64,000 nt of DNA. Origin: Minisyncoccota bacterium (GTDB taxonomy: Bacteria > Patescibacteriota > Minisyncoccia > UBA9983). The first letter of the stretch is position 1, and every line of letters starts with the position of its first letter. This document shows positions 2,760 to 63,851 of the stretch, piece by piece. Below the pieces are notes generated by a model, which made no database searches, was not told where the DNA came from, and saw only the letters and a program-made list of their open reading frames with translations. The translations under genes and the position numbers were made by a program. Location: NCBI GenBank assembly GCA_041648395.1, contig JBAZPC010000002.1, positions 29,181 to 93,180 on the forward strand, given 5' to 3'.

Positions 2760-3740
2760 TTGCTTTTGGCTTTTTTTGTCTTTTCCTCTACGGCTCACGC
2801 TGGCTTTTTTTCTTTTTTAAATAATATCCTTGGTTCAAAAAACCAAGAAAAACCGATTTATAATTCACAAACCGTTTCCCTTTTGGAAGGGTCGCTATCT
2901 CCCGAATCGGGAACAGGCAAAGGCGGAGGAGATATAACAATTGTCAATAATGCCCTTTTGCCCGACTCTGGACCGTTGGGCACTATCGCCGACATAAAAG
3001 ATAGGAGGGCAACGCCCGACCAGATAAGCATTTATGTGGTTAGAAAAGGGGATAACATTTCCGAAATAGCAAAAATGTTTGATGTTTCGGTAAACACTAT
3101 AATTTGGGCAAACAGTTTAGCTTCCGGGGAATCAATAACTCCTGGTCAAATTCTCGTCATTCTTCCTGTTTCTGGCATTCAGTACACGGTCAAAAAAGGC
3201 GACACGGTGAAAAGTATTGCAAAAAAATTAAGCAGTGACATAACAGAAATCCTCCAATATAACGGCTTGGCGATAAACGACAATTTAACTGAAGGCCAAA
3301 CAATAATAATTCCTAACGCAGATTATTCGGAAACGGAAAAAAGCCCGCCTTCCACTCAATCCATAAAACCAAAAATTTCAAACACGCCGTTTTATGCCGG
3401 ATATTATATGAGGCCCATTGAGGAGGGAAGAAGGTCCCAGAAAATTCATGGATACAACGCCGTTGACTTGGCTGATTCATGCGGAACGCCGGTTATGGCC
3501 GCCGCTAGCGGAGATGTTCTTATAGGCAGAGGCACGGGGTGGAATTCCGGATACGGGCATTATATTGTTCTCGTTCATTCGAACGGCACGCAAACTCTCT
3601 ACGCGCACTTGAGCGAAAACATCGCCACGGAAGGATGGCATGTGACGCAAGGACAAATAATTGGCTACATTGGTTCAACTGGCAAGTCAACTGGCTGCCA
3701 TGTCCATTTTGAAATCCGCGGCGCCCAGAATCCGTTTTAA
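2760..3740 (+). CDS. Secreted peptidoglycan hydrolase with two LysM domains and a C-terminal M23 peptidase domain
   Basis: N-terminal signal/TM segment, two LysM-like segments (YVVRKGDNISEIAKMF..., YTVKKGDTVKSIAKKL...), and an M23 motif GYNAVDLA...GHYIVLVHSNGTQTLYAHL...TGCHVHFEIRG. Confidence 0.85.
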   Translation: MLLAFFVFSSTAHAGFFSFLNNILGSKNQEKPIYNSQTVSLLEGSLSPESGTGKGGGDITIVNNALLPDSGPLGTIADIKDRRATPDQISIYVVRKGDNISEIAKMFDVSVNTIIWANSLASGESITPGQILVILPVSGIQYTVKKGDTVKSIAKKLSSDITEILQYNGLAINDNLTEGQTIIIPNADYSETEKSPPSTQSIKPKISNTPFYAGYYMRPIEEGRRSQKIHGYNAVDLADSCGTPVMAAASGDVLIGRGTGWNSGYGHYIVLVHSNGTQTLYAHLSENIATEGWHVTQGQIIGYIGSTGKSTGCHVHFEIRGAQNPF

Positions 3741-21796: not shown

Positions 21797-21822
21797 CCAA
21801 AACCCGGCAGGAAGCCGGGCCT

Positions 21823-21893
21823 GCGGGATTAGTTAAATGGTATAATATCAGTTTTCCAAACTGAGGTTAGGAGTTCGATTCCCCTATCCCGCA
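21823..21893 (+). tRNA. tRNA-Gly (anticodon TCC)
   Basis: Manual fold: acceptor GCGGGAU/AUCCCGC, anticodon stem UCAGU/ACUGA with loop UUUCCAA, T loop UUCGAUU (one A-C mismatch in the T stem). Confidence 0.6.
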
Positions 21894-21906
21894 TTTTTTG
21901 GAGTTC

Positions 21907-21984
21907 CCTGCCCGCCATGCGAGCCGCCACGCCCGACTTCGCAAGATGAAGTCGTTGCGGGCGGGCAGGCGAGGCAGGCGGGGA
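21907..21984. repeat. GC-rich palindromic element (CCCGCC...GGCGGG family), nested hairpins
   Basis: cctgcccgcc...ggcgggcagg termini are reverse complements with an inner hairpin. It lies immediately 3' of tRNA-Gly in an otherwise AT-rich genome. Confidence 0.6.
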
Positions 21985-22167
21985 TTCTCCCTGTCCGCAC
22001 CAGACAGGAAAAGTCAAAGAGTTTTGGTTCGCCTCGCTTCGCTCGGCGACTAATTTGTATTGGATTTTGGGGGTAAAAACGAATTGGCGATTCTGCATTT
22101 TGGGGGAAGAAAATTTTTTAATCATAAAGTCGAAATAAATTATTATTAACTATACTATAATGCACAT

Positions 22168-45603: not shown

Positions 45604-46646
45604 AATAATTTATTTTGAACCGGCGGTTTTTTGCCTAAATGCTTATAAGCGTGCGGAGTAGCGACTCTTCCGCGTGGCGTGCGCTCCAGAAATCCGAGCT
45701 GAATCAAATACGGCTCGCAAACTTCTTCTATTGTTTCTTCCTCTTCGGAAGAGGCGGCGGCTAATGTTTGGAGGCCAACCGGCCCACCGTTGAATTTATC
45801 TATAAGAATTTCAAGAATCCTTCTGTCGTGGCCGGTTAGCCCGACGTTGTCTATTTCCAAAAGCTCTAGCGCTTTTTTGGCCGTTTCCAAATCTATGGAC
45901 TCTTTTTTATTGACCTGGGCGTAGTCCCTGCATCTTTTTAACAAATGGTTGGCGATGCGCGGAGTAAACCTGCTTCTTTTAGCGATTTCTTCCGCCGCCT
46001 CGCCGCTGATTTCCTCTTCCAAAATTTTTGCCGAGCGTATGATTATTTTTTTAATCTCATCCTTGTCGTAAAAATTCAAACGAAATGTTCCGCCGGAAAA
46101 TCGCGAACGAAGGGGGGAGGAAAGCATGGAGACCCTGGTGGTGGCAGCAATGAGAGTAAACGGCGGAAGATCCAATTGAATGGTTCTTGCCGACGGCCCT
46201 TTGCCGATGATTATATCCAGTGAACCCGACTCCATGGCCGGATAAAGAATTTCTTCAATGAGTTTATTTAGGCGATGGGCCTCGTCAATAAATAAAATAT
46301 CACCGGGTGAAAGGTTGGTAAGAATAGACGCCAGGTCGCCGACTCTTTCTATGGCGGGGCCAGAGGTAACCTTCATTTGCGCGCTCATTTCTTTTGCGAT
46401 AAGATAGGCGAGCGTTGTCTTTCCCAATCCGGCCGGACCGTAAAAAAGAAGATGCTCTGGTGTTTCGTTGCGCTCCAAAGCGGCTCCTAAAAGAATTTTA
46501 AGATTGTTTTTGGTGGATTCTTGGCCAATGTAGTCGTCCCATTTTTGGGGCCGTAACGTTTGGTCAAGAACTTTGTCCCCGCCTGCAATGCTTTGCATAG
46601 CAATGCGGGCAGGTTCTTTATTGAGATTATTTGGGGGGGTTGACAT
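45600..46646 (-). CDS. ruvB: Holliday junction branch migration ATPase RuvB
   Basis: Walker [12 protein letters not shown], sensor motifs and a C-terminal winged helix. Confidence 0.95.
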
Positions 46647-50995: not shown

Positions 50996-53900
50996 ATGAA
51001 AAAAATTATGAATAAAAATTTAATATTGTTTTCAGGGCTGATAATTTTAGTCGGAGTTTTGGCGCCAACAGTTTTTGCGCAGGCCGCGTATTTTAATACT
51101 GACCCATCGGATCATCCAATATTAAGGGTTGCCAACGCCACAAAAAATCCTTTTTGCACCAGTTGCTGGAATTCAACGGTCACGGCCGATGCCGGCGACA
51201 TTGTTGATTTTGATATTTATTACCACAACACGTCCAGTGAGAAAGCCATTCAGACAATGGTCAACGCCATTCTTCCGTCCGGCAGTTCAAACTCTTTTAC
51301 GGTTTCTGGCAGTGTTTGGGCGCAAAACGCTTCCATGATAAGCGGTTCCGCTCTTATCAATCTTACTTCAAGCCAAAGCTTGTCGTTTATTCCCGGCTCT
51401 GTCAGATGGTATCCCAATCAATCGGCGTCTTTTTCTCCGCTTCTTAACGGGCAGTCCGGCGCTGAAATTATCACTGCGTCCGGTTTGAATATCGGCGACA
51501 TCGCCGCGGGATGGAGCACTCAAGGCCATGTTGTTTTTGGAGTTCAGGTGAGCGGCAGCCCAAATCCTCCTCCCTCGTCTCCTACGGTTTCTATTTCTGC
51601 CTCTCCGAATCCCGTTAATTATAATTCCACAACAAACTTAACATGGTCCTCAACCAATGCCACTTCATGTACCGCTTCCGGCGGATGGTCTGGAACAAAA
51701 GCGACTTCTGGTTCTGAAACAACCGGTTCTCTTGCAAGCGCCCAAACCTACACCCTCACCTGCACGGGCTCTGGCGGAACGACTTCAAATAGCGTTACTG
51801 TCAACGTTAATCAACAACAGGGCCAAGCGCCGACAGTGAACACAAACTCTGCCACCAATGTCGGGCAAATTTCAGCCACTCTTAATGGCTCAATCAATCC
51901 CAATTCCAGCGCCGCTAACGTCTGGTTTGAATGGGGAACAACGCAATCAAGTTTAACTAACACTATCACTTACGGCGGAATCGGCGCAGGCGCTTCGGCT
52001 GTCAACGCCTCCATGACGGTTTCCGGCCTCAACCAGAACACCACTTACTATTTTCGCGCTGTCGCGCAAAACTCCTTTGGCACCGTTCAAGGCCAGATTT
52101 TGAGTTTTACCACAGGAGGTGGAGGGGGAACTGGTTTACCGACAATCACCACAAATCCTGCCACCAACATTGTCCAAACTTCCGCTGACCTTAACGGCGC
52201 CGTCAATCCGAACGGCAGCAATACTAACGCTTGGTTTGAATATGGCACTACCCAATCATTTGGCAGCACCACCACCCAGGTTTCTCAAGGTTCGGGTTCT
52301 TCTAATATTAATTTCGTCAGAAACATTACTGGTCTTCAAAACAACACTACTTATTATTATAGGGCCATTGCTCAAAATTCTTTTGGAACGGTAAACGGTT
52401 CAACGCTTAATTTCACAACTTCTAGCGGTGGCGGGGGAGGGGGAGGAGGCGGTAGCCTCCCTGTTGTAAATACAGGGGATGCGTCAAATATTACAGACAC
52501 ATCCGCGGTATTAAAAGGTTATGCTAACCCCAATAACAGCGATACGAACGCGTGGTTTGAATGGGGTAGGGCTGTCGATGGTCTTGTTAATGTCACAAAT
52601 CAGCAGAATGTAGGGGGCGGAACTTCTTATGTGTCATTTCTTTCTGGTATAACAGGACTCACTTCTGGAACTGTTTATGTTTATCGCGCTGTCGCTCAAA
52701 ATGCCGCTGGCACGGCCTTTGGTTCTACTTTGAGTTTTACAGCCACTGGAGGTGGCGGCGGTGGCGGAGGAGGCGGTGGCGGAGGAGGCGGCTCTTGTTT
52801 GCCTATTGTCACAACTAATTCTGCCAGCTTTATAACCAAGGATTCAGCAACCTTAAGGGGACTTGTGAATCCGCAAGGCCGTTCAACAAGCGGTTGGTTT
52901 GAATATGGCAAATCATACGCTTTAACAAACAGAACTGAATCGCAAACAGCCGGCAGCGGTTCGGTTGATACCGATATATTAAAATATCTCGCCAGCATTG
53001 AATCAAATACCAGCTATTATTTCAGGACCGTGGCTCAAAATAATTGCGGTTCGGCGTACGGCAGTATTGTGAGTTTTACCACAGGGCTTGGCAACGGTAA
53101 TCCGCCGGAAGTCATAACTTTAGCGGCAACAAACATAACTCAAACATCAGCCACCATAAACGGAAACGTTAATCCCAATAATTATGACGTCTCGGCGTGG
53201 TTTGAATGGGGGACAAATCCGACTTTATCAGCTTATACTATTACCCCTACGTCAAATCTCGGCTCGGGAAATTTGTTTAAAGCGATAAGTTCAATGCCTT
53301 ACGGCTTGGCGAACAATTCTGTTTATTATTATCGCGCCGTTGCCCAGAATACCTTTGGCGTCGCGCGCGGAACAATCTTAAATTTTACAACTGGGAAAGT
53401 AGAAGCTCCTATCCCCGGTGTCAGTTTTTCTGTCTGGAAAGAAACAAAAAATCTTTCCTTTCCCAACGGCACGATTTATGTTAATTCATCTTCTATCGGC
53501 GATACGTTGGAATTTTCTCTAAACATAAAAAACAAAAGCTCTGACACATTAAGAAATATCATTGTGAAAGACAAAATTTCTTCTTACTTTGATTTCGTGG
53601 AATCAAGCCCCGGAATCAGTTCTAATTCCTCAGGGAATTCATTGGCGTGGAACATAGATTCTGTTGCTTCGGGGGATACAAAAACAATTACTTTTAAAAT
53701 TAAAACAAAAACTGTTGAGGAAAGCGTTGTTATTTCCAACAACTTCACAATCACTGCCGGCGGAATCACCAGAACATCAAACAGCACGACAAACATTCTT
53801 AACCCTTCTTTGATGGCGCTGGATATAGGCGTTGACAAAGACAACGTCAAGAAAAACGAGACGTACAATTATACCGTTAGGTACAGGAATATCGGAATCG

Positions 53901-57496: not shown

Positions 57497-57877
57497 ATGG
57501 CGAAAGAATCAATTTTAATAGTAGAAGACGACAAGTTTTTCAGGGACTTGGTCTCAAAAAAGCTTGAAAAGAACGGCTTTGAAATGCTTTTGGCCGCCGA
57601 CAGCAAGGAGACGCTTACCCTTTTGGAAGAAAAAAAGCCGTCTCTCATAATTTCAGACCTGATTCTCCCTGGGCTGGACGGCTTTGAACTTATTTCTATT
57701 ATAAAAAAAGACGAAAAGACCAAAGACATACCCGTGATAGTTTTAAGCAACCTTGGGCAAAAAGAAGAAATAGAGAGGGCAATGTCGTTGGGCGCGATTG
57801 ATTTTATGGTCAAAGTGAATTTTACACCAGATGAGATTGTGGAAAAAATCAAAAGGGTCTTAAGCGGAAGGATTTAG
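57497..57877 (+). CDS. Stand-alone response-regulator receiver (REC) domain protein
   Basis: ILIVEDD...D (phospho-acceptor ISDLILPGLDG)...K pattern. 126 aa. Confidence 0.8.
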   Translation: MAKESILIVEDDKFFRDLVSKKLEKNGFEMLLAADSKETLTLLEEKKPSLIISDLILPGLDGFELISIIKKDEKTKDIPVIVLSNLGQKEEIERAMSLGAIDFMVKVNFTPDEIVEKIKRVLSGRI

Positions 57878-57882
57878 GAGCC

Positions 57883-58647
57883 ATGATATATCTTCTTTAT
57901 GGAAAAGATGCAGTGAAGAGCAGACAGAAGTTAAATGAGCTTCTGTATTTTTTTCGTTCCAAAGACAGCAATGTTTCTATTTTTAAAATTGACGAATACG
58001 ATTTTGAAAAAGAAAAACTAGAAGAGCTGTCCCGTTCCAGCACGCTTTTCGGTGGAAAGGTGGTTGTGGTATTCAATAGGATATTTGACGACAAAAATAT
58101 TTCAAAAATTATTCTGGAAAATTTGGACGTGTACGCCGCTTCCAAAAATATTTTTATTTTTTATGAGGAAGAAGTGGACGACAAAAATTTTGATTTAATC
58201 AAAGAAAAAGCGAAGAAAGTTCAGAAATTTAATCTGCCTGCAGGTAGGGAACTAAAAACAAGTAAATTTGGCGGAAAGGACTACGGCGACTATAATCCCT
58301 TTCTTATCTGCGACGCCGTCGGCGAGAAAAATAAAAAAAAGGCGTGGCTTTTATTCCAAGATGCGCTTTTTAAAGGCGTGCCGGCGGAGGAAGTTTTTTG
58401 GAAAATTTGGTGGCAGGCAAAGACAATGCTTTCCGTTAAAATCGCGTCCGATGCGGGAGTAAAAAATCTTGAAAAGGAAACTGGCTTTCATCCGTATGTG
58501 GTAAAGAAAAATCTCGGCTTCTTGAGAAATTTCAGCTTCAAAGAACTTGATATTTTTTCCTGGAAACTCGTGGAGCTTTATCACAACGCCCGCCGTGGCC
58601 TGGCCGATTTCGAAATCGGCTTGGAGAAAATTTTAGTTAACTTTTAA
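57883..58647 (+). CDS. holA: DNA polymerase III delta-subunit-like protein (HolA-like, short)
   Basis: N-terminal MIYLLYGKDAVKSRQKLNEL pattern of delta subunits. 254 aa. Confidence 0.5.
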   Translation: MIYLLYGKDAVKSRQKLNELLYFFRSKDSNVSIFKIDEYDFEKEKLEELSRSSTLFGGKVVVVFNRIFDDKNISKIILENLDVYAASKNIFIFYEEEVDDKNFDLIKEKAKKVQKFNLPAGRELKTSKFGGKDYGDYNPFLICDAVGEKNKKKAWLLFQDALFKGVPAEEVFWKIWWQAKTMLSVKIASDAGVKNLEKETGFHPYVVKKNLGFLRNFSFKELDIFSWKLVELYHNARRGLADFEIGLEKILVNF

Positions 58648-58675
58648 CTTTTATTATGTTAATATCATAAACAGC

Positions 58676-59047
58676 ATGGAAAAAATTAAAATTCTTGTCG
58701 TAGAAGACGACGACTTTTTTAGAGATACTGTTGCTAAAAGATTAGAACGGGAGGGGTTTGATGTGTCTTCTGCTGGGAACAGCAAAGAGGCGTTGGAAAT
58801 TTTAGAGACAAAAAAGCCAAACATTGTCTTACTAGACATAATTCTTCCCGGAATGGACGGCTTTGAACTTCTTTCTCTAATTAAGAAAACAGAGAGTATA
58901 AAGGACATTTCCGTAATGATTTTAAGTAATCTGGGTCAAAAACAGGACATTGAAAAAGCGCTTTCCTTGGGCGCGAAGGACTTTATGATTAAAGTGAATG
59001 TCAACTTGGATCAAATCGTAGAGAGAATTAAAAAAGAAATTTCTTAA
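58676..59047 (+). CDS. Second stand-alone REC-domain protein (paralog of 57497-57877, about 55% identical)
   Basis: ILVVEDDDFFRD...LLDIILPGMDGFELLSLIKK...LSNLGQKQDIEKALSLGAKDFMIKV. Confidence 0.8.
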   Translation: MEKIKILVVEDDDFFRDTVAKRLEREGFDVSSAGNSKEALEILETKKPNIVLLDIILPGMDGFELLSLIKKTESIKDISVMILSNLGQKQDIEKALSLGAKDFMIKVNVNLDQIVERIKKEIS

Positions 59048-59054
59048 TTTTTAA

Positions 59055-59075
59055 ATTGTCCGCCCGGCAGGATTC
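59055..59075. repeat. 21-bp direct duplicate of the tRNA-Lys 3' end (attgtccgcccggcaggattc), an att-like site
   Basis: Identical to 60787-60807, which comprises the 3' 17 nt of tRNA-Lys plus 4 nt downstream. Confidence 0.75.
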
Positions 59076-59128
59076 CCCGCCCGCCACGCAAGCCAAGCAA
59101 GCTTGTCTTGCTGGCGTTGCGGGCAGGG
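59076..59128. repeat. GC-rich palindromic element, copy A (cccgcccgccacgcaagccaagcaagcttgtcttgctggcgttgcgggcaggg)
   Basis: Its reverse complement matches 61163-61212 over about 49 nt. It is an internally imperfect palindrome. Confidence 0.75.
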
Positions 59129-59185
59129 AACCTCAAACAAATTACGCCCTCGCTTGGGTTAGCGGATTTTTTACTAATATTTATA

Positions 59186-59404
59186 TTATCTTTCTAGTTT
59201 GTTTATTTCTGCTGGCGATAAAAAATCTTCACACTCCTTTTTTAATTTTTCCTTTATTACATCTAACCCCTTCCATTCCTCGCGAGAAAGAGACAATTGT
59301 TCTTTGTCTTCAGTTTTAGTGGTTATTCTATATGCCCGAGTCCTTTTCTTAATATTTTCCCATTCTTTAAATAATCTTTCGCAATATTCTTGTTTATCTT
59401 CCAT
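59186..59404 (-). CDS. Hypothetical small protein
   Basis: 72-aa charged ORF inside the tRNA-Lys-associated module. Confidence 0.25.
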   Translation of the reverse strand: MEDKQEYCERLFKEWENIKKRTRAYRITTKTEDKEQLSLSREEWKGLDVIKEKLKKECEDFLSPAEINKLER

Positions 59405-59437
59405 AAATTTATTTTACCCTAATAGTAATAAAAAAAA

Positions 59438-59881
59438 TCAGACCATTTCTTTTTTTAGTTTATTGAAACAAATTTTTAGCTTTTCTAAAATAAAATTACT
59501 GCTAATTTGAGGGGGGTTTAATTTAAAATCTAATTTTCCGATTTTGCTAATTCCTAGAATCTTTCCGTGATGGACGCCGAAACACCTATGCCATTGGTAT
59601 ATTTTATTGGCTAAATCTATGTTTATACTAGAATAAGAACTAAGAAAATTTATAAACAATCTTTTTGAAGTTAAGCCGTTTTTAAATCTTGACAAGCCAT
59701 CGATATAACAAAGTGCTAAAATAATCTTTTCTTCTTCGTATTCTCCGCCTATTTTTTCAAGCTGTTTAATTTTAGTTTCATAATTATTAAACCATTTCTT
59801 AATTATTTCTTTGTCTGTCCCGGTCAAAAAACTTTTACGCCACATTCGGAACTCCTCTATATCCTTTTTATTTACTCTCAT
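59438..59881 (-). CDS. Hypothetical protein
   Basis: 147-aa ORF with no recognised motif. Confidence 0.3.
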   Translation of the reverse strand: MRVNKKDIEEFRMWRKSFLTGTDKEIIKKWFNNYETKIKQLEKIGGEYEEEKIILALCYIDGLSRFKNGLTSKRLFINFLSSYSSINIDLANKIYQWHRCFGVHHGKILGISKIGKLDFKLNPPQISSNFILEKLKICFNKLKKEMV

Positions 59882-59898
59882 TGTATTTTACCATTAAC

Positions 59899-60786
59899 TT
59901 AATTTGAAAGTCCGGGAAAAATTATTTGTGCCCTCAAAATTCTCGCCAAAGATTCTACTTTTCCTATTTTTGCAAATGTAGGTATTCCAACATAACAATT
60001 GCCCTTCGGGAAAATAGCTGCACCCCCAGAATTTCCATATTCAATCTTCGCAGAAGTAACATAATAATCTCCTTCGTAACCAGAAATAATACCTTCAGTG
60101 GCAGTAATACCCGTTTCTGTACCTATTCCTGGGTATCCCAATATAACAACACTCTCACCTAAAGAAAGCTGAGTATTACAAACCTGATAGTCGCCTCCTA
60201 TGTTATCAAGATATTTGTCGGGGCTGTTAATTTTGAGAGTTGCCCAGTCATATCCCTGAGACGAAAAAGCAATATTTTCAATAGCTACACTAATAATTTT
60301 GTTATAATTTGGAATTACAATCCTACAAAAATCCGGCCTATAAATAAAATCTTCAAAAACAACATGTCTGTTCGTAATAATACTAACTATAGCATTGTCG
60401 CCATAACCAAAAGTTGATAATATTCCTGAACCACTTTGTATATTGCTACCAAAATTACATTCAACATAAGCTATTTTATTTTTCCACTGTCGGATTATGT
60501 CCGGCAAATCATTTTTTGGTGTCTGCGCTTCTTTAATTATCGTTTTTTGAATAATTTGTGGTTTCTGATTTTTTAGCACCTCTACTTCTTGCCTTAACTT
60601 TTCAACTTCTAAGTCTTTCAGTCGTTGTGTTTCTTGTGCTATTTTTTCTTTCTCAATTTTTTCTGCTTGATATTTTTGGTATTGTTTAATACTAAAATAT
60701 CCTCCACCGCCCAAAACTAAAACGCCCGCAATGATTGCGATTAATATTGGTATTTGAATAAAACCTTTTTGATTTTTAATTCTCAT
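59899..60786 (-). CDS. Membrane-anchored trypsin-like (S1/S1-like) serine protease
   Basis: N-terminal TM plus coiled coil, with a C-terminal ...GYPGIGTETG...GNSGGA motif (the catalytic Ser context). Confidence 0.6.
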   Translation of the reverse strand: MRIKNQKGFIQIPILIAIIAGVLVLGGGGYFSIKQYQKYQAEKIEKEKIAQETQRLKDLEVEKLRQEVEVLKNQKPQIIQKTIIKEAQTPKNDLPDIIRQWKNKIAYVECNFGSNIQSGSGILSTFGYGDNAIVSIITNRHVVFEDFIYRPDFCRIVIPNYNKIISVAIENIAFSSQGYDWATLKINSPDKYLDNIGGDYQVCNTQLSLGESVVILGYPGIGTETGITATEGIISGYEGDYYVTSAKIEYGNSGGAAIFPKGNCYVGIPTFAKIGKVESLARILRAQIIFPGLSN

Positions 60787-60790
60787 ATTG

Positions 60791-60863
60791 TCCGCCCGGC
60801 AGGATTCGAACCTGCGACCCTCTCCTTAAAAGGGAGCTGCTCTACCAACTGAGCTACGGGCGG
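60791..60863 (-). tRNA. tRNA-Lys (anticodon TTT)
   Basis: Manual fold: acceptor CCGCCCG/CGGGCGG, D stem GCUC/GAGC, anticodon loop CUUUUAA, T stem GCAGG/CCUGC with loop UUCGAAU. Confidence 0.75.
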
Positions 60864-60868
60864 ATAAG

Positions 60869-61129
60869 TTACACTTCTGGAAGTATTTTTAATTTTAATC
60901 TATTTTTTAAAAATCTTCTACCAAATCCTGTCTTGAAATATTTCTCTCTTTTTAATGCTGATTGTTTATCTAAACACGCTTCATAATAAACTAATTCTAA
61001 TGGCCATCTATTTTTTGTGGCATCAACTAATCCATTACTATGTTCAATAAATCTTTGTTTCAGGTTTTCACTAAAACCAATGTAAAATTTTTTATCTTTT
61101 TGACTTTGAAGAATATACGTGTAAAACAT
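60869..61129 (-). CDS. Stand-alone GIY-YIG nuclease-domain protein
   Basis: FYTYILQSQKDKKFYIGFSENLKQRFIEHSNG...ELVYYE. The start is trimmed to MFYTY (61129) because the upstream in-frame extension is the GC palindromic element. Confidence 0.75.
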   Translation of the reverse strand: MFYTYILQSQKDKKFYIGFSENLKQRFIEHSNGLVDATKNRWPLELVYYEACLDKQSALKREKYFKTGFGRRFLKNRLKLKILPEV

Positions 61130-61162
61130 TAATTTTTTAAAAATAAATGACCAACTGACCGC

Positions 61163-61212
61163 GCCCGCAACGCCAGCAAGACAAGCTTGCTTGGCTTGCG
61201 TGGCGGGCGGGG
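61163..61212. repeat. GC-rich palindromic element, copy B (inverted relative to copy A)
   Basis: cccgcaacgccagcaagacaagcttgcttggcttgcgtggcgggcgggg is the reverse complement of 59079-59127. Confidence 0.75.
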
Positions 61213-61229
61213 CTACGGGCGGAATTTTT

Positions 61230-61724
61230 TTAAGTGTGCCGATCCGCCAAAACAAACGCGCTGTATGAGTCCGGTTTTATGATTGCCTCAAAGCCGAACC
61301 CTTTCACCATTCCCACCATGCCGTCAATGAAATCCTTGGTCGGGCCGTTTTTTCCCACATCAAGATGAACTTTTATTTTATTATTCCAAAAGAACTCCTC
61401 TCCTAATTTATCTTTTAATCTGCTTTTCAATTCCTGTACAAAAGTGATGGAATGCATTGTCTCTTTGTAAATCCTGTCGCGCAGGGTGGGGCAAAAAACT
61501 TTTTCCGTTTTTGACCAGAAATATCTTCCGCCGTTGCCGACTCTCAAAATGGCGATAGCTGTGACAAATTGAGTTTCGTTGGAACCTTGGGAATCGGAGC
61601 CGACGGTGATTTTGTATTTTGCCTCCGGCTTTTGATTGATATAATTTGCGATTTCCTCAATCAGTTCATCGAATTTGATGTGGCGTTTTAATGTTTCGTT
61701 GTAAAACTTTATATTATCAGACAT
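61230..61724 (-). CDS. DUF458/YkuK-like RNase H-fold protein (tentative)
   Basis: ...KITVGSDSQGSNETQFVTAIAILRVGNGGRYF... resembles the YkuK family. Confidence 0.4.
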   Translation of the reverse strand: MSDNIKFYNETLKRHIKFDELIEEIANYINQKPEAKYKITVGSDSQGSNETQFVTAIAILRVGNGGRYFWSKTEKVFCPTLRDRIYKETMHSITFVQELKSRLKDKLGEEFFWNNKIKVHLDVGKNGPTKDFIDGMVGMVKGFGFEAIIKPDSYSAFVLADRHT

Positions 61725-61729
61725 AAGAT

Positions 61730-62089
61730 TTATAGCGGCAGGTCAAAAGAATATATGCCGGGACCAAGCAATGCCAAACTGATACTTACGGCAACCATCA
61801 ATAACCTCAATATTTTTTCTTCCGTTTTGTTTGAAATAGTTATCAGAGAAACAATGGCGGCTACCTGCGTAAACATTCCGATTGCCAAAAAAATAGCCGA
61901 TAGAATTTCAATAACCCCGATAATTTTTTCTCTCTTTTCCGCTGATTTGAATAATTTATATCCAACTTGCAAAAGAATAACAGCTAAAATCACCCTCAAT
62001 ATCAAAGGAGCCACTTGGGAAAAATTTAAAAGTTCTGGAAATACGCTAAGCATATTCCCATTATAGGCATTAATACGACCGGGAGTCAA
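61730..62089 (-). CDS. DoxX-family membrane protein
   Basis: 119 aa with 3-4 TM helices and LRVILAVILLQVGYKLF. Confidence 0.5.
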   Translation of the reverse strand: MTPGRINAYNGNMLSVFPELLNFSQVAPLILRVILAVILLQVGYKLFKSAEKREKIIGVIEILSAIFLAIGMFTQVAAIVSLITISNKTEEKILRLLMVAVSISLALLGPGIYSFDLPL

Positions 62090-62921
62090 TAATGTTGTTG
62101 TTTTGGTCGTAGAGGATTATTTTGTCATGCTCGTTGTTCCAAAGATTGTATTTTTTATTGAGATAAATTCTCCATTCTGGCTTAAAAAAATCAGAATCAC
62201 GTTTGTGCCGGTTGGCGCAATTATTGTAATTCAATCTATCATTAACATATTGTCTGCAGGCGTCGGTAAAAGAAGATGGTAAGGTGATATATTCCGTGCA
62301 GTTTTTAAAATTATTATTTATGTAATCAATGCAGGCGTTGTCCAGCGTTGCCGGCAGAACCTCGTCTTTTATTGGGTCGGGACAGCTGCCGTAAATCGGC
62401 GGAATAAATGTTTGTAGCTGGTTGAAATATCCGGCGCATTTGTTTAGTTTAAAACTTATTCCTATAGGGCTTTCTCCGCTTGATATTATCGCTTTTTCTC
62501 CGGGAGCGAGAAGAATGTCGTCCAACGTGTTGTCTTGTCCGAGAAAGGGAACGAGGGCGCCTTTCCCTATTTTTATTCTTTCTCCGCCTTTTCCTTCAAG
62601 AGACCAACCGCTTATGTCCACCGAGTTTTTATTGGAAAAAGATGTTTGGATTGATATGAATTCTTTTTTTGGGTCATTTTCTTTTGTTTCAATGCCGGCT
62701 GACAAGTACACGGAGTCCTTTCCTGCGTATCCGCTGGAAGACCCGCCGCTTTGGTTTATCGGCGCTTTGATTTCCTCGGATATTTTATCCACCGGCGATC
62801 CAAAAAACAGTCCTTTTTCTCTCGGTTCTCTTGACGGGCCGCCGAAGGTTAGCCAAATAATAAAAACCGCCACAAAAAACAGAACAGCCCACATCAAGTC
62901 CTTTTTTACATGGTCTTCCAT
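62070..62921 (-). CDS. Secreted/membrane-anchored hypothetical protein with Cys-rich C-terminus
   Basis: N-terminal TM and several Cys in the C-terminal half. Confidence 0.35.
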   Translation of the reverse strand: MEDHVKKDLMWAVLFFVAVFIIWLTFGGPSREPREKGLFFGSPVDKISEEIKAPINQSGGSSSGYAGKDSVYLSAGIETKENDPKKEFISIQTSFSNKNSVDISGWSLEGKGGERIKIGKGALVPFLGQDNTLDDILLAPGEKAIISSGESPIGISFKLNKCAGYFNQLQTFIPPIYGSCPDPIKDEVLPATLDNACIDYINNNFKNCTEYITLPSSFTDACRQYVNDRLNYNNCANRHKRDSDFFKPEWRIYLNKKYNLWNNEHDKIILYDQNNNIIDSRSY

Positions 62922-62933
62922 AAAAAGATTATA

Positions 62934-63851
62934 TCACAGCCGCTGGTGAACAGGGCAGAAGTGCGCCGAGCGTCCGCCGATTCTTATTTTTTTAATAATG
63001 CCGCCGTCGCGCCTTTTGCATTTTTCTCCCGTTTGCTGGTAGGCGTAATGCATTTCTTGATAATGACCTTTTCTGCCGTGGGCGTCGCGATAATCAATAT
63101 AAGAACTGCCGCGCGCTTTAATGGCTTTTTTGAGAATCGGTTTGACGGCGCTGTAAATTTTTTTCAGTTCCACTTCTTTCAGCTTATTCGCCGGCTTCAA
63201 GGGGTGCGCGCCGGCCATCCATAAAATTTCATCGGCGTAGATGTTGCCAATGCCGGCGATGAGCGTTTGGTCCATCAAAACGATTTTAATTTTACCCGAT
63301 TTTTTCCCTATCAACTCTTTAAATTTTACAAAAGTTAATTTCTTATCTAATGCGTCAAGCCCCAGCCCAGCTAGTTCTTCTGGAATTTTTTCTGTTTCTA
63401 AAATAACCACTTTGGCGAATTTGCGCATGTCGCAGAGCGCCAGTTGCTTATTATTAGAAAGAAAAAATAAAAGATGTATGAAGCGATTTTCTGGGTCGCG
63501 AAGAGGACCGGGTTCAATAGAAATCCATTTTTGAGTTTTGAGACCCGTCTTGCCGTCGGGCAGGTTTGATTTTCCCCATTTCCCATATAGTAGGTGCCCT
63601 GTCATTTTTTGATGCACTAAAATTGTTTTACCGCCACCGCGCCCGCCACGCTTCGCTGGCGATGCGGGCGGGGACAAATAAATCAAAATATTTTTCCCGC
63701 GCCGTTCTAATTTCAAAATCTTCTTACTGGCCGTTTCTTTTTTAATTTTTTTCGCGCTGAAAAAATCACTCCAAACATCCCGGATTTTCAATTCGGGCAA
63801 AACTTTTTTCAGGTCATTTACGATTGTCTCAACCTCTGGCAGTTCCGGCAT
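62934..63851 (-). CDS. mutM: Formamidopyrimidine-DNA glycosylase (Fpg/MutM) carrying an in-frame GC-palindromic-element insertion
   Basis: MPELPEVET N-terminus (catalytic Pro2, Glu3), H2TH and a C-terminal zinc finger (CPVHQRL...CxxC). The GC element at 63638-63673 is translated as the LSPPASPAKRGGRGGGKT segment. Confidence 0.85.
   Translation of the reverse strand: MPELPEVETIVNDLKKVLPELKIRDVWSDFFSAKKIKKETASKKILKLERRGKNILIYLSPPASPAKRGGRGGGKTILVHQKMTGHLLYGKWGKSNLPDGKTGLKTQKWISIEPGPLRDPENRFIHLLFFLSNNKQLALCDMRKFAKVVILETEKIPEELAGLGLDALDKKLTFVKFKELIGKKSGKIKIVLMDQTLIAGIGNIYADEILWMAGAHPLKPANKLKEVELKKIYSAVKPILKKAIKARGSSYIDYRDAHGRKGHYQEMHYAYQQTGEKCKRRDGGIIKKIRIGGRSAHFCPVHQRL
63638..63673. repeat. Short GC-rich palindromic element (cgcccgccacgcttcgctggcgatgcgggcgggg), in frame within fpg
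   Basis: It shares termini with the 59076 and 61163 elements. See the fpg feature. Confidence 0.7.

Follow-up and report, generated by a model that had tools for sequence, protein, structure and literature searches.

Hairpin-split tRNA-Lys remnants beside a GIY-YIG mini-nuclease gene, apparently one instance of a selfish-element family in CPR bacteria

The window, that is, the whole 64-kb stretch of DNA analysed here, contains a module of about 2.1 kb between a response-regulator gene (58676-59047) and an RNaseH-like gene (61230-61724). The module holds open reading frames of 72, 147 and 295 aa (the last with a Trypsin_2 domain), tRNA-Lys(UUU) and an 86-aa GIY-YIG nuclease gene, together with pieces of tRNA-Lys and two inverted copies of a GC-rich palindrome, PAL-A and PAL-B (Table 1). 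This content agrees with a preliminary description of the locus, which had noted the lack of an integrase; domain searches found no integrase, transposase or recombinase domain in any ORF of the module. Both repeats that it had reported are real: the 21-mer ATTGTCCGCCCGGCAGGATTC occurs in exactly two copies (59055-59075 and 60787-60807), and the inverted PAL pair (59075-59124 and 61163-61212) is 100% complementary over 50 nt and unique in the window, where shuffled sequences gave an expectation of 0 in each case. The GC content of the module is 31.6%, compared with 40.4% for the window, and its interior is the 12th lowest of 620 windows. Across the module, an ENA metagenome contig (L001, MEGAHIT k141) matches the window with 100% identity. 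A Logan assembly from another run (L002) is identical until 61183 and ends within PAL-B, the kind of place where a repeat is expected to stop a contig; every assembly that covers the complete module may go back to the same data.

Table 1. Coordinates of the module's features and of further PAL copies in the window (positions 1-73 are those of the tRNA)
Feature	Coordinates	Strand	Remarks
tRNA-Gly instance	21901..22000	+	GGAGTTC, nested PAL, GATTCTCCCTGTCCGCA; six T separate it from tRNA-Gly (21822-21894)
Solo PAL in ruvB	46578..46613		36 nt, in frame, +12 aa; the 12 aa are absent in L085 RuvB
3' tRNA-Lys remnant, outer part	59055..59075	-	positions 57-73 (GAATCCTGCCGGGCGGA) + CAAT; exact 21-mer copy of 60787-60807
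PAL-A	59076..59127		between C56 and G57 of the remnant T loop; hairpin -21.1 kcal/mol, z = -5.2
3' tRNA-Lys remnant, inner part	59128..59133	-	AGGTTC = positions 51-56; tRNA similarity stops here
72-aa ORF, cargo	59186..59404	-	without family match
147-aa ORF, cargo	59438..59881	-	rare; accompanies the protease gene
Trypsin-like protease, membrane-anchored, cargo	59899..60786	-	295 aa, PF13365 (Trypsin_2); ATG 4 nt past the tRNA
Intact tRNA-Lys(UUU)	60791..60863	-	no other complete copy here; full-length match to Rfam RF00005 (71.2 bits)
GIY-YIG nuclease gene	60869..61129	-	86 aa, catalytic domain only; PF01541, 54.8 bits, E 1e-14
5' tRNA-Lys remnant, inner part	61150..61158	-	TCAGTTGGT = positions 12-20; contiguous across PAL-B (21 nt)
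PAL-B	61160..61211		inverted relative to PAL-A; between tRNA positions 11 and 12; hairpin -19.8 kcal/mol, z = -3.1
5' tRNA-Lys remnant, outer part	61212..61223	-	T + positions 1-11 (TCCGCCCGTAGC); exact 12-mer copy of 60853-60864
Solo PAL in fpg/mutM	63638..63672		in frame, +12 aa PPASPAKRGGRG

Each PAL is bordered on both sides by tRNA-Lys sequence, a feature that had been missed in the preliminary description. The 5' piece, split by PAL-B, adjoins the upstream gene, with ~6 nt between its outer part and the RNaseH-like stop codon. The 3' piece, split in the T loop by PAL-A, adjoins the downstream gene, the response regulator, whose stop codon is 7 nt away. When PAL-A is removed, tRNA-Lys sequence becomes contiguous over 27 nt. 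The stumps cover positions 1-20 (5') and 51-73 (3') of tRNA-Lys, and positions 21-50 of the resident tRNA are missing. With these positions absent and an intact gene present, a split tRNA whose halves would be joined by trans-splicing through complementary GC leaders was rejected. ARAGORN called the intact gene (60791-60863) 'tRNA-Stop(tta)', with the anticodon loop displaced by one base, which was taken as an artefact of a G27.A43 mismatch. A suppressor tRNA was likewise rejected: aligned to the Rfam model, the gene falls in the canonical register and has the anticodon UUU, and tRNAs of relatives that share its anticodon arm are called as Lys.

The tRNA-Lys neighbourhood was then compared among related genomes, as the preliminary description had proposed. 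In L085, L084 and L089, whose RNaseH-like protein is 72-80% identical, the site is empty and consists of the RNaseH-like gene, 0-8 nt, tRNA-Lys(UUU), ~10 nt and holA. The two stumps of the window coincide with both borders of this tRNA-Lys: the 5' remnant occupies the start site of the resident gene, and the 3' remnant takes the place of its 3' end. Since the relatives have only gene, tRNA-Lys and gene, the 2.1 kb lies within the ancestral tRNA-Lys. Half-modules were found in two further relatives. PAL, GIY-YIG (74% identity) and tRNA-Lys are present in L102 without a 3' PAL, and L083 has tRNA-Lys, 9 nt, AGGTTC, PAL and the 3' stump without GIY-YIG; because L102 has only the 5' cassette and L083 only the 3' PAL remnant, the module is read as two insertions. 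The GIY-YIG gene upstream of tRNA-Lys is present in the window and L102 and absent from L083, L084, L085, L089 and L104, so that, as with homing endonucleases, presence and absence alternate at one conserved site among relatives. The site just 3' of tRNA-Lys also varies among them.

Stumps and intact tRNAs come from different alleles in L102, L083, L009 and L076. The stump of L102 agrees at 19/19 nt with the tRNA of its relative L104, whereas the acceptor stem of the intact L102 tRNA is different and internally compensated. In L083 the stump is identical to the tRNA 3' end of L084 and L085 and collinear with the holA flank. Comparison of these sequences indicates that DNA has moved between lineages at these tRNA sites. 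The L102/L104 and L083/L084 comparisons would fit both import of the intact tRNA and a stump that travels with the element.

Five copies of PAL occur in the window, three of them beyond the module (21907-21985, 46578-46613 and 63638-63672). The tRNA-Gly copy (hairpin -31.6 kcal/mol, z = -5.1) lies in a 3' fragment that represents another allele and is interrupted at the T-loop point seen for PAL-A; the geometry of AGGTTC and PAL-A is seen both there and in L083. Besides the in-frame copy in ruvB, the 12-aa PAL insertion in Fpg is absent from the Fpg of L089, L084, L099, L083, L058 and L006, and the RNaseH-like gene of L099-L101 and L112 carries a precise 36-nt in-frame insertion that is missing in relatives. 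No target-site duplication was found; in the RNaseH-like gene and in fpg, occupied sites differ from empty ones by exactly the 36-nt element. PAL is GC-rich, 35-60 nt long and conserved in sequence, and its core is kept across phyla in the alignment; RNAalifold gave no support for hairpin covariation, the core being conserved in sequence instead. From its solo insertions we infer that PAL is an independent insertion element, mobile by itself. Like MITE, REP and RPE sequences it is a short palindrome in several copies that is polymorphic among relatives, and neither the target-site duplication nor, among the ORFs of the module, the cognate transposase (IS family or RAYT) that characterises such families was found.

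Several other rules for PAL were considered, and most were rejected. A spliced tRNA intron was rejected, since at loci with enough sequence no PAL-bearing tRNA copy is both complete and without an intact copy beside it. Entry at hairpin apices fits the T loop and the site in the RNaseH-like gene, but D-arm junctions range from position 2 to 22. A duplication left by a staggered cut was rejected because the length of duplicated tRNA differs between loci, from 12 to 36 nt with a further 0-35 nt upstream, which does not suit a fixed stagger. RNA-templated copying of mature tRNA may be a source of the duplication, which often begins at +1 and includes a terminal CCA in the case of tRNA-Gly; the stumps of tRNA-Lys, in contrast, have genomic, non-CCA tails. 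The orientation of PAL relative to GIY-YIG is not constant. The finding of both orientations, of tRNA sequence that always continues at least 6-7 nt beyond the hairpin, and of solo PAL insertion without target duplication was counted against the explanation favoured below.

The nuclease gene has its ATG 30 nt from the end of PAL-B and its stop codon 5 nt ahead of position 1 of tRNA-Lys. Its product carries a GIY-YIG domain with the Tyr...Tyr-x-Gly, Arg, His/Tyr and Glu residues of that superfamily (Y5, Y16, G18, R26, H30 and E62 are invariant in 30 homologues) and is ~70% identical across phyla. The predicted structure (pLDDT 96) adopts the GIY-YIG fold, with UPF0213 and Slx1 as nearest folds. 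A phmmer search against the PDB gave 1ZG2 (E 0.003), and Foldseek gave 1ZG2 (E 2.5e-4), Slx1 (TM 0.59-0.69) and I-TevI (TM 0.43), placing the protein nearer UPF0213 (YhbQ-like) and Slx1 than I-TevI/Seg or UvrC. Slx1 cuts branched DNA close to the branch point (PMC6902002). Given its invariant catalytic residues and nearest folds, the nuclease looks active and structure-specific. At 78-86 aa, proteins of this type comprise the catalytic domain only, with no joined DNA-binding domain for the 15-40-bp target of a homing endonuclease. The database entry for the protein is 128 aa long because the ORF was extended through the palindrome. Within 58000-62500 only tRNA was significant in Rfam, with no group I intron, and the non-coding part of the cassette is ~100 nt; a GIY-YIG gene encoded in an intron or in another known RNA was therefore rejected. 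So was a phage origin, as PHROGs gave no match for the nuclease, the 147-aa ORF or the 72-aa ORF, and IMG/VR gave one match to the nuclease among 2.9 million viral contigs.

To place the locus in context, 80 GIY-YIG loci from GTDB species representatives across CPR bacteria were surveyed; the search itself returned >1,600 GIY-YIG protein clusters. A same-strand tRNA starts within 200 nt after the GIY-YIG match at 56 of the 80 loci, compared with 0.9-2.4% expected, and the median gap between stop codon and tRNA is 6 nt. The tRNA species occupied number 15 and differ between genomes. At 51/80 loci a complete PAL lies 6-58 nt (median 19) upstream of the ATG; PAL of this family is missing in only ~6/80. 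Once PAL is deleted, 41 loci show an uninterrupted 5' portion of the adjacent tRNA (identical in 24), with an inner stretch of median 10 nt. In at least seven loci (L012, L031, L033, L045, L048, L065 and L080) the GIY-YIG ORF lies within PAL arms, in some cases inside protein genes, and in L009 and L076 whole tRNA-Val genes lie inside PAL arms that are themselves inserted in another tRNA-Val. Six other loci have near-identical PAL pairs around GIY-YIG as direct rather than inverted repeats. GIY-YIG is the only recurrent partner gene of PAL among the 80 loci, and these associations indicate that the two are physically coupled. Full-text literature searches turned up no account of the tRNA-linked PAL/GIY-YIG architecture; the hairpin and nuclease apparently form a widespread selfish-element family of ultra-small (CPR) bacteria that has not been described before.

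The remaining genes of the module appear as cargo. The protease is absent from this site in 34/34 related loci. The 147-aa protein has only 4 homologous clusters in 5.8 billion proteins, and its homologue adjoins a protease homologue on L118, L123 and L125. Contig L118 (2,088 nt) encodes an HTH protein, a protease (63% identity), the 147-aa homologue (63%) and a further ORF, and its termini are inverted copies of a GC hairpin that is shorter than PAL and different from it. Another protease homologue (52% identity) lies on L119 within an element (L119-L122) that encodes a large serine recombinase, a primase and an AAA ATPase.

We think it probable, with some reserve, that an ancestral Paceibacterota tRNA-Lys(UUU) was colonised on both sides by a CPR-wide selfish system of PAL and a 78-86-aa GIY-YIG nuclease of Slx1/UPF0213 type. 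The 5' cassette (61223 down to 60864) has the standard unit of the family: a PAL-split 5' tRNA copy, the nuclease gene and an intact tRNA. The 3' insertion (60786 down to 59055) is a nuclease-less unit of cargo genes followed by a 3' tRNA copy split by an identical PAL. The nuclease, having no DNA-binding domain of its own, would act on the PAL hairpin or cruciform or on the neighbouring tRNA gene, and the break would be mended by recombination through short tRNA homology. As the tRNA is essential, only products that keep or import one intact copy would survive, the disrupted copy staying behind as PAL-split stumps. The nuclease gene is probably co-transcribed with the tRNA and may be freed by tRNA 5' processing, and the 3' unit with its protease, 147-aa and 72-aa cargo may have been mobilised in trans via the identical PAL.

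The module could instead be a single 2.1-kb transposon-like composite in which GIY-YIG is joined with an extra tRNA-Lys and three cargo genes, inserted in the resident tRNA-Lys with PALs as terminal repeats and the nuclease acting at both ends. We regard this as unlikely, though several observations speak for it: the 50/50-nt perfect inverted repeat unique in the window, the low GC of the interior, and the PAL arms that enclose GIY-YIG at seven loci and whole tRNA-Val genes in L009 and L076. The identity and inversion of PAL-A and PAL-B, as a single composite would show, and the homologous cargo between inverted GC hairpins on L118 count against two insertions; L118, however, is known only to its contig ends, and its hairpin is not PAL. 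Inward of the palindromes tRNA-Lys sequence runs on, by 9 nt at PAL-B and 6 nt at PAL-A, and therefore the PALs lie within stumps and not at the edge of foreign DNA. The loss of resident tRNA positions 21-50 is not what a simple insertion would cause, L102 and L083 each have one half alone at the same locus, and the direct PAL pairs at six loci do not fit terminal inverted repeats. Of the nuclease-mobilised element put forward in the preliminary description, the association of PAL with GIY-YIG is thus retained, and the PALs are probably not the termini of one transposon.

A classical island, in which an integrase element entered the 3' end of tRNA-Lys (attL/attR being the 21-nt repeat) and lost its integrase, with PALs and GIY-YIG as unrelated later arrivals, seems to us improbable. 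A direct repeat of the tRNA 3' end does bracket the protease, 147-aa and 72-aa genes and marks the far boundary, the position 3' of tRNA-Lys is variable among relatives, and the protease has its homologue in the serine-recombinase element. The crossover in the T loop would also be in keeping, such points reportedly having been given as typical for tRNA-integrating elements by Williams in Nucleic Acids Res in 2002. But neither end of the module has a recombinase, and the direct repeat is interrupted exactly in its T loop by PAL-A, in the same way as after tRNA-Gly (6 nt) and L083 tRNA-Lys (9 nt), where there is no island. It is mirrored by the 5' fragment on the opposite side, and because that fragment is present, 3'-end integration cannot account for the other side. 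Hence the earlier idea of a decayed integrative element was abandoned, while insertion at tRNA-Lys as such is supported: the module, lacking in relatives and low in GC, is inserted and probably foreign, with the duplicated tRNA end as a boundary.

That nothing here is mobile, the PALs being termination or RNA-processing hairpins, GIY-YIG a host repair or RNA factor co-transcribed with tRNAs and the fragments decayed duplications, would suit the stable hairpins, a gene very conserved and always co-oriented with tRNA, and a possible RNA role suggested for prokaryotic Slx1-like proteins from a TrmH fusion (PMC1564403), but is very improbable and largely contradicted by presence/absence at the same site in close relatives, different occupied tRNA species, allelic differences between stump and intact tRNA, in-frame PAL in ruvB, fpg and RNaseH-like genes of only some lineages, and GIY-YIG within PAL arms inside protein genes.

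Beyond the colonisation of this tRNA-Lys from both sides, we tentatively suggest that PAL and its Slx1-like mini-nuclease might represent an undescribed class of mobile element. It could enter essential genes without intron or intein and regenerate or bring an intact copy ('gene-replacement homing'), on which the host would then depend, and tRNA loci might gather nested stumps from successive invasions; recognition would be of the hairpin and not of a long DNA sequence, with cutting at least 7 nt from its foot. Among the conserved targets of such entry would be rRNA, an epimerase gene at its GxGxxG codons, and tRNA genes at the D arm and the T loop. If true, a large share of the genes annotated 'GIY-YIG nuclease family protein' in CPR/Patescibacteria would be the selfish component of a hairpin/nuclease system that targets tRNA genes and not repair genes, and nuclease-driven elements would have, beside self-splicing introns and inteins, a third means of residing in an essential gene, namely keeping or importing a spare copy. 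It would also offer a route for exchange of tRNA genes and adjacent cargo between lineages with very small genomes. In practice, stumps and palindromes interrupt assemblies, as in L002, and mislead gene callers; PAL adds 12-aa peptides to housekeeping proteins; and a 78-aa nuclease with a defined hairpin partner makes a readily testable biochemical system.

Among known systems, phage T4 SegB is a free-standing GIY-YIG homing endonuclease in a tRNA gene cluster. It recognises GGTTCRANTCC, the conserved T-psi-C motif, cleaves numerous tRNA genes and promotes the inheritance of both its own gene and the tRNA genes nearby (PMC2330249). Like SegB, the CPR GIY-YIG gene lies among tRNA genes, and PAL-A splits the same motif midway (GGTTC/GAATCC). 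By analogy with I-TevI-type enzymes, SegB presumably has a DNA-binding region beyond its catalytic domain; unlike the phage enzyme, the CPR protein is a catalytic domain only, of Slx1/UPF0213-like fold, and chromosomal. A conserved palindrome and truncated target-tRNA copies accompany it, neither of which is mentioned for SegB in the parts of that report drawn on here (PMC2330249). Insertions in CPR rRNA genes carry small GIY-YIG ORFs, are neither group I nor group II introns and mostly lie, among those surveyed, at the top or base of stem-loops (PMC11270868). Probably they are the form in which the ORF lies inside PAL arms; a term search of that paper found tRNA and palindromes unmentioned. 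The best sequence and fold matches of the CPR nuclease, Slx1/UPF0213 (YhbQ, BH0048; PDB 1ZG2), share with it a catalytic domain that relies on DNA shape and not on a long recognition sequence, but Slx1 requires Slx4 and works in repair, with no mobile-element role or tRNA linkage described (PMC6902002, PMC1564403). As in tRNA-integrating islands and prophages, foreign DNA lies by an intact functional tRNA and is bounded by a partial tRNA repeat; unlike them, the CPR units have no integrase, include 5' fragments too, carry a palindrome in each fragment and have cargo down to 6 nt. Yeast mitochondrial GC clusters are mobile GC-rich palindromes within AT-rich DNA that are frequently located close to tRNA genes and in some cases in coding regions, but they are organellar and have neither a dedicated nuclease gene nor tRNA stumps. 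Rickettsia palindromic elements (RPE), reportedly described by Ogata et al. in Science in 2000, and bacterial MITEs and REPs (REP/RAYT systems) are short GC-rich palindromes in many copies, and the PAL insertions in ruvB and fpg (36 nt, 12 aa) resemble RPE. PAL differs from these palindromic repeats in having a GIY-YIG nuclease, not an IS transposase or RAYT (HUH), as its partner, in leaving no target-site duplication, and in its strong preference for tRNA genes, its coupling to partial tRNA copies and a core conserved across phyla.

The preliminary description had placed a 21-nt repeat of the tRNA-Lys 3' end and inverted copies of a GC-rich palindromic element (PAL) around a module at the tRNA-Lys locus, and this arrangement was recovered. 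Exactly two copies of the 21-mer exist (59055-59075 and 60787-60807; chance expectation, none), and the palindromes at the module's two ends, PAL-A and PAL-B, form a 50-nt perfect inverted pair (59075-59124 and 61163-61212). The enclosed gene content was also as described, and no recombinase domain was found in the ORFs between the PAL copies, in keeping with the reported absence of an integrase. What had not been seen is that the intact tRNA-Lys lies between one 5' stump and one 3' stump, a stump being a partial tRNA copy split by PAL. Because stump pieces are present on both sides of PAL-A and of PAL-B, each palindrome sits inside a tRNA-Lys fragment; PAL-A splits the T loop mid-motif (GGTTC/GAATCC). 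Read on the tRNA strand from the 5' stump, the order is 20 nt, the GIY-YIG gene, 5 nt, intact tRNA-Lys, 4 nt and the protease gene, followed by the 147-aa ORF, the 72-aa ORF and the 3' stump.

Features of the tRNA-Lys module and PAL insertions in protein genes (window positions unless a contig is named; PAL borders are uncertain by 1-3 nt)
Feature	Position	Strand	Remarks
PAL in ruvB	46578-46613		in frame, adds 12 aa; the 12 residues are absent from relatives' orthologues
3' stump, outer part (GAATCCTGCCGGGCGGA-CAAT)	59075-59055	tRNA strand	tRNA positions 57-73 plus 4 nt, after PAL-A
PAL-A	59076-59127
3' stump, inner part (AGGTTC)	59133-59128	tRNA strand	tRNA positions 51-56, before PAL-A
ORFs of 72 aa, 147 aa and 295 aa (Trypsin_2)	between PAL-A and PAL-B	minus
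tRNA-Lys, intact	60791-60863	minus	Rfam, canonical register, anticodon UUU, 71 bits
GIY-YIG ORF, 86 aa	60869-61129	minus
5' stump, inner part (TCAGTTGGT)	61158-61150	tRNA strand	tRNA positions 12-20, after PAL-B
PAL-B	61160-61211
5' stump, outer part (T-CCGCCCGTAGC)	61223-61212	tRNA strand	one upstream T plus tRNA positions 1-11
PAL in fpg/mutM	63638-63672		in frame, adds PPASPAKRGGRG; the 12 residues are absent from relatives' orthologues
PAL in RNaseH-like (PF04308) gene	L099-L101 6322-6357; L112 1178-1213		36 nt, in frame, adds PVRNATQTVAGG

The module interior has a GC content of 31.6%, against 40.4% for the window, and ranks 12th lowest among 620 windows of that length. An ENA contig (L001) was 100% identical to the window over the module, and a Logan assembly from another run (L002) was identical until 61183, where it ends within PAL-B; the assemblies spanning the whole module may all share one data source. 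The label 'tRNA-Stop(tta)' given by ARAGORN to 60790-60863 was rejected, since the Rfam register gives anticodon UUU with a G27.A43 mismatch, and comparison with E. coli tRNA-Lys likewise gives UUU. The label is taken to be a one-base register shift due to this mismatch, so automated annotation could report a false suppressor tRNA here.

The site was then compared with 34 metagenomic loci encoding relatives of the adjoining RNaseH-like (PF04308) protein. In the closest three (L085, L084 and L089; protein 72-80% identical) the order is an LTD-domain gene, a DoxX-like gene, the RNaseH-like gene, 0-8 nt, tRNA-Lys(UUU), about 10 nt and holA on the opposite strand. Palindrome, nuclease gene and protease are all absent from the tRNA-Lys site of these three, so the neighbourhood comparison proposed in the preliminary description yielded relatives without the module. 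In the window, the 5' stump lies about 6 nt from the RNaseH-like stop codon; at the opposite border, 7 nt lie between the end of the 3' stump and the neighbouring gene's stop codon. Stumps at both gene borders, together with the relatives' gene order, place the 2.1 kb inside the old tRNA-Lys gene, of which positions 21-50 are lost.

The surroundings of tRNA-Lys vary in other respects. Between holA and the tRNA-Lys site of the window lies a response-regulator gene (58676-59047), 60% identical to its paralogue upstream of holA (57497-57865); related loci that extend beyond tRNA-Lys lack it at that position. Just 3' of tRNA-Lys, reading of the sequence gave a DedA-like ORF in L084 and an rpiB-like gene in L104 and L102; L088 has a small ORF there. 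By the same reading, L088 also carries, at 1440-1800, a gene resembling the four-helix-bundle '23S rRNA intervening-sequence proteins', which occupies the position of the window's GIY-YIG gene just upstream of tRNA-Lys. At three other loci (L004, L013 and L024) GIY-YIG directly follows the C-terminus of such a gene.

Further pairs of GIY-YIG gene and palindrome, which the preliminary description had proposed to look for in the genome, were found in genomes across Patescibacteria; homologues of the 86-aa protein form more than 1,600 clusters there, at 60-80% identity. The scan covered a single genome for each GTDB species, and of at least 240 loci confirmed, the best 80 were analysed. Among these best 80, a same-strand tRNA begins no more than 200 nt after the GIY-YIG match in 56 (chance, 0.9-2.4%), with a median gap from stop codon to tRNA of 6 nt; 15 tRNA species adjoin the gene, Lys(UUU) being the commonest. 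A complete PAL stands 6-58 nt (median 19) ahead of the ATG in 51 of the 80, and solely downstream of the gene in 12; the ORF lies between two PAL arms in at least 7, and in 4 (L068, L074, L075 and L079), which lack the GC palindrome, a different, AT-richer inverted repeat, e.g. CCCTGTTAAATAA ... TTATTTAACAGGG, flanks GIY-YIG. At 41 of the 80 loci, deletion of PAL in silico gave an unbroken 5' piece of the tRNA next to the gene, identical to that tRNA in 24 and with mismatches in 17. These 41 pieces stop at tRNA positions 12-36, with 4-16 nt (median 10) on the nuclease side, and the duplicated piece begins 0-5 nt from tRNA position +1 in 21 of 25 loci checked. By this family-wide architecture, PAL-B, GIY-YIG and tRNA-Lys of the window are a textbook family member. 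Comparative anatomy, from which all conclusions here are drawn, shows that the pair is an insertion and prefers tRNA genes, and that every insertion comes with two copies of its target, one truncated and split by PAL and the other intact.

Comparison of related loci also shows the two halves of the tRNA-Lys module to be separable. At the orthologous locus, L102 combines a PAL-split 5' stump and GIY-YIG (74% identity) with tRNA-Lys and unrelated cargo of 685 nt, but has no 3' PAL; compared with its neighbour L104, L102 2383-3463 replaces tRNA position 20 through 8 nt past the gene. L083 has tRNA-Lys, 9 nt, then AGGTTC, PAL and GATTCCTGGTGGGCGGACA, with no nuclease gene at the locus. These separate halves, the tRNA-Lys sequence on the inner side of both palindromes, and near-identical PAL pairs around GIY-YIG that are direct repeats at six other loci and inverted only in the window favour two PAL-associated insertions over one inverted-repeat-bounded transposon. 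The preliminary description had raised the palindromes as the inverted repeats of a single element; the coupling of PAL with GIY-YIG holds, but a composite bounded by PAL-A and PAL-B is an improbable reading against this evidence, even though the two copies are identical. In its favour is L118, a contig of 2,088 nt that starts and ends with a short GC hairpin, CGTCCGCCTTGCGCGCTTTGCGGGCGAAC, in exact inverted orientation (1-29 and 2060-2088) and carries HTH, a protease (63% identity), a homologue of the 147-aa protein and an ORF of 96 aa. So are complete tRNA-Val genes enclosed by palindrome arms (L009 3281-3387 and L076 3260-3384), the palindrome in turn lying in the D loop of a second tRNA-Val gene that is otherwise complete.

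These tRNA-Val genes are nested replacement copies, and three generations share one site in L076, where a stump accompanies a complete copy broken by PAL and, within that PAL, an intact copy. Downstream 3' stumps were seen at L060, L061, L063, L069 and L077. In the window, tRNA-Gly (21822-21894) is followed by TTTTTT, GGAGTTC, a nested PAL and GATTCTCCCTGTCCGCA (region to 22000), a tRNA-Gly 3' fragment split in the T loop, with a second palindrome nested in the loop of the first. The fragment is a different allele, with acceptor strand TGTCCGC versus ATCCCGC in the functional gene, and, unlike the functional gene, encodes a terminal CCA. At 19 of 19 nt the L102 stump GCCTCGTTAGCTCAGTTGG agrees with the tRNA of L104, and the intact tRNA of L102 differs in its acceptor stem (GCCTCCA...TGGAGGC), in its D loop and in its T arm. 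The 3' stump of L083 equals the tRNA 3' end of L084 and L085, collinear with the holA flank, and its intact tRNA is of another type. DNA has moved between lineages at PAL-occupied tRNA sites. Two routes would account for this: import of the intact tRNA in place of the resident one, or arrival of the stump together with the element, out of a co-occurring relative.

PAL also appears to be mobile by itself. Its core, CCCGCCCGCCA-YGCAAG...CTTGC...GGCGTTGCGGGCGGG, is nearly invariant in 22 copies from different phyla; no covariation was detected in the hairpin in this alignment, conservation lying in the sequence, and the elements form stable hairpins when folded (z = -3 to -5). Of the five PALs in the window, two are insertions of 36 nt that keep the reading frame of the gene they occupy. 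Neither the window nor other relatives carry the insertion in the RNaseH-like gene; the 36-nt element is the entire difference between filled and empty sites, without any target duplication. In this respect PAL is like the Rickettsia palindromic elements. Other repeats in the window are a separate short family (AGTAGTCAGTATTGAGTAGTCAGTA-like) scattered at 264, 2264, 25066, 40897 and 49972, and tandem repeats of about 320 nt inside a coding region (51890-53360), with G-rich (GGNGGN) linkers at 52413-52804.

Insertions of PAL with GIY-YIG were also found in protein genes. In three genomes (L045, L065 and L080, about 2900-3350) they break an NAD-dependent epimerase-like gene at one and the same codon of its GxGxxG-coding start. 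Beyond the insertion, 7 nt remain of the old gene (TCGGTTC in L045 and L065), and after a short spacer comes a complete gene whose N-terminus is new. In two distant genomes (L012, about 2960-3280, and L048, about 1130-1440) PAL arms enclosing GIY-YIG break into an AbrB-like ORF, in both cases at one shared codon that follows GW/SW; precise excision reopens the conserved frame in both, and removal could occur at the RNA or DNA level. In CPR rRNA, a published survey found GIY-YIG ORFs within insertions that belong to neither the group I nor the group II introns (PMC11270868); searched by term, its text mentions neither tRNA nor palindromes.

The canonical GIY-YIG residues are all invariant, and the AlphaFold model of the 86-aa protein (pLDDT 96) best matched UPF0213 (1ZG2) and the structure-specific nuclease Slx1 (TM 0.6-0.7), with I-TevI at only 0.43. 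Since a DNA-binding domain is absent, the nuclease more plausibly recognises a DNA shape, the hairpin or cruciform of PAL, than a long sequence; branched DNA is cut by Slx1 close to the branch point (PMC6902002).

In the mechanism we propose, the nuclease would break DNA at or beside the hairpin or within the tRNA gene, and short tRNA homology would be used in repair. A donor locus would supply the sequence by gene conversion, or an element bearing a tRNA fragment would integrate through a single crossover. Selection would retain only products with one working tRNA, and the nuclease gene would ride on tRNA transcription. The protease, 147-aa and 72-aa unit may be a nuclease-less passenger with the same PAL. 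No description of this tRNA-linked hairpin/nuclease architecture was found in the full-text literature searched, the coverage of which is incomplete. We file PAL and GIY-YIG as a free-standing homing-type nuclease with a MITE-like palindrome, with a substantial chance that they deserve a class of their own. The closest documented precedent is the phage T4 GIY-YIG enzyme SegB, whose recognition sequence in tRNA genes is GGTTCRANTCC and which spreads neighbouring tRNA genes along with its own gene (PMC2330249).
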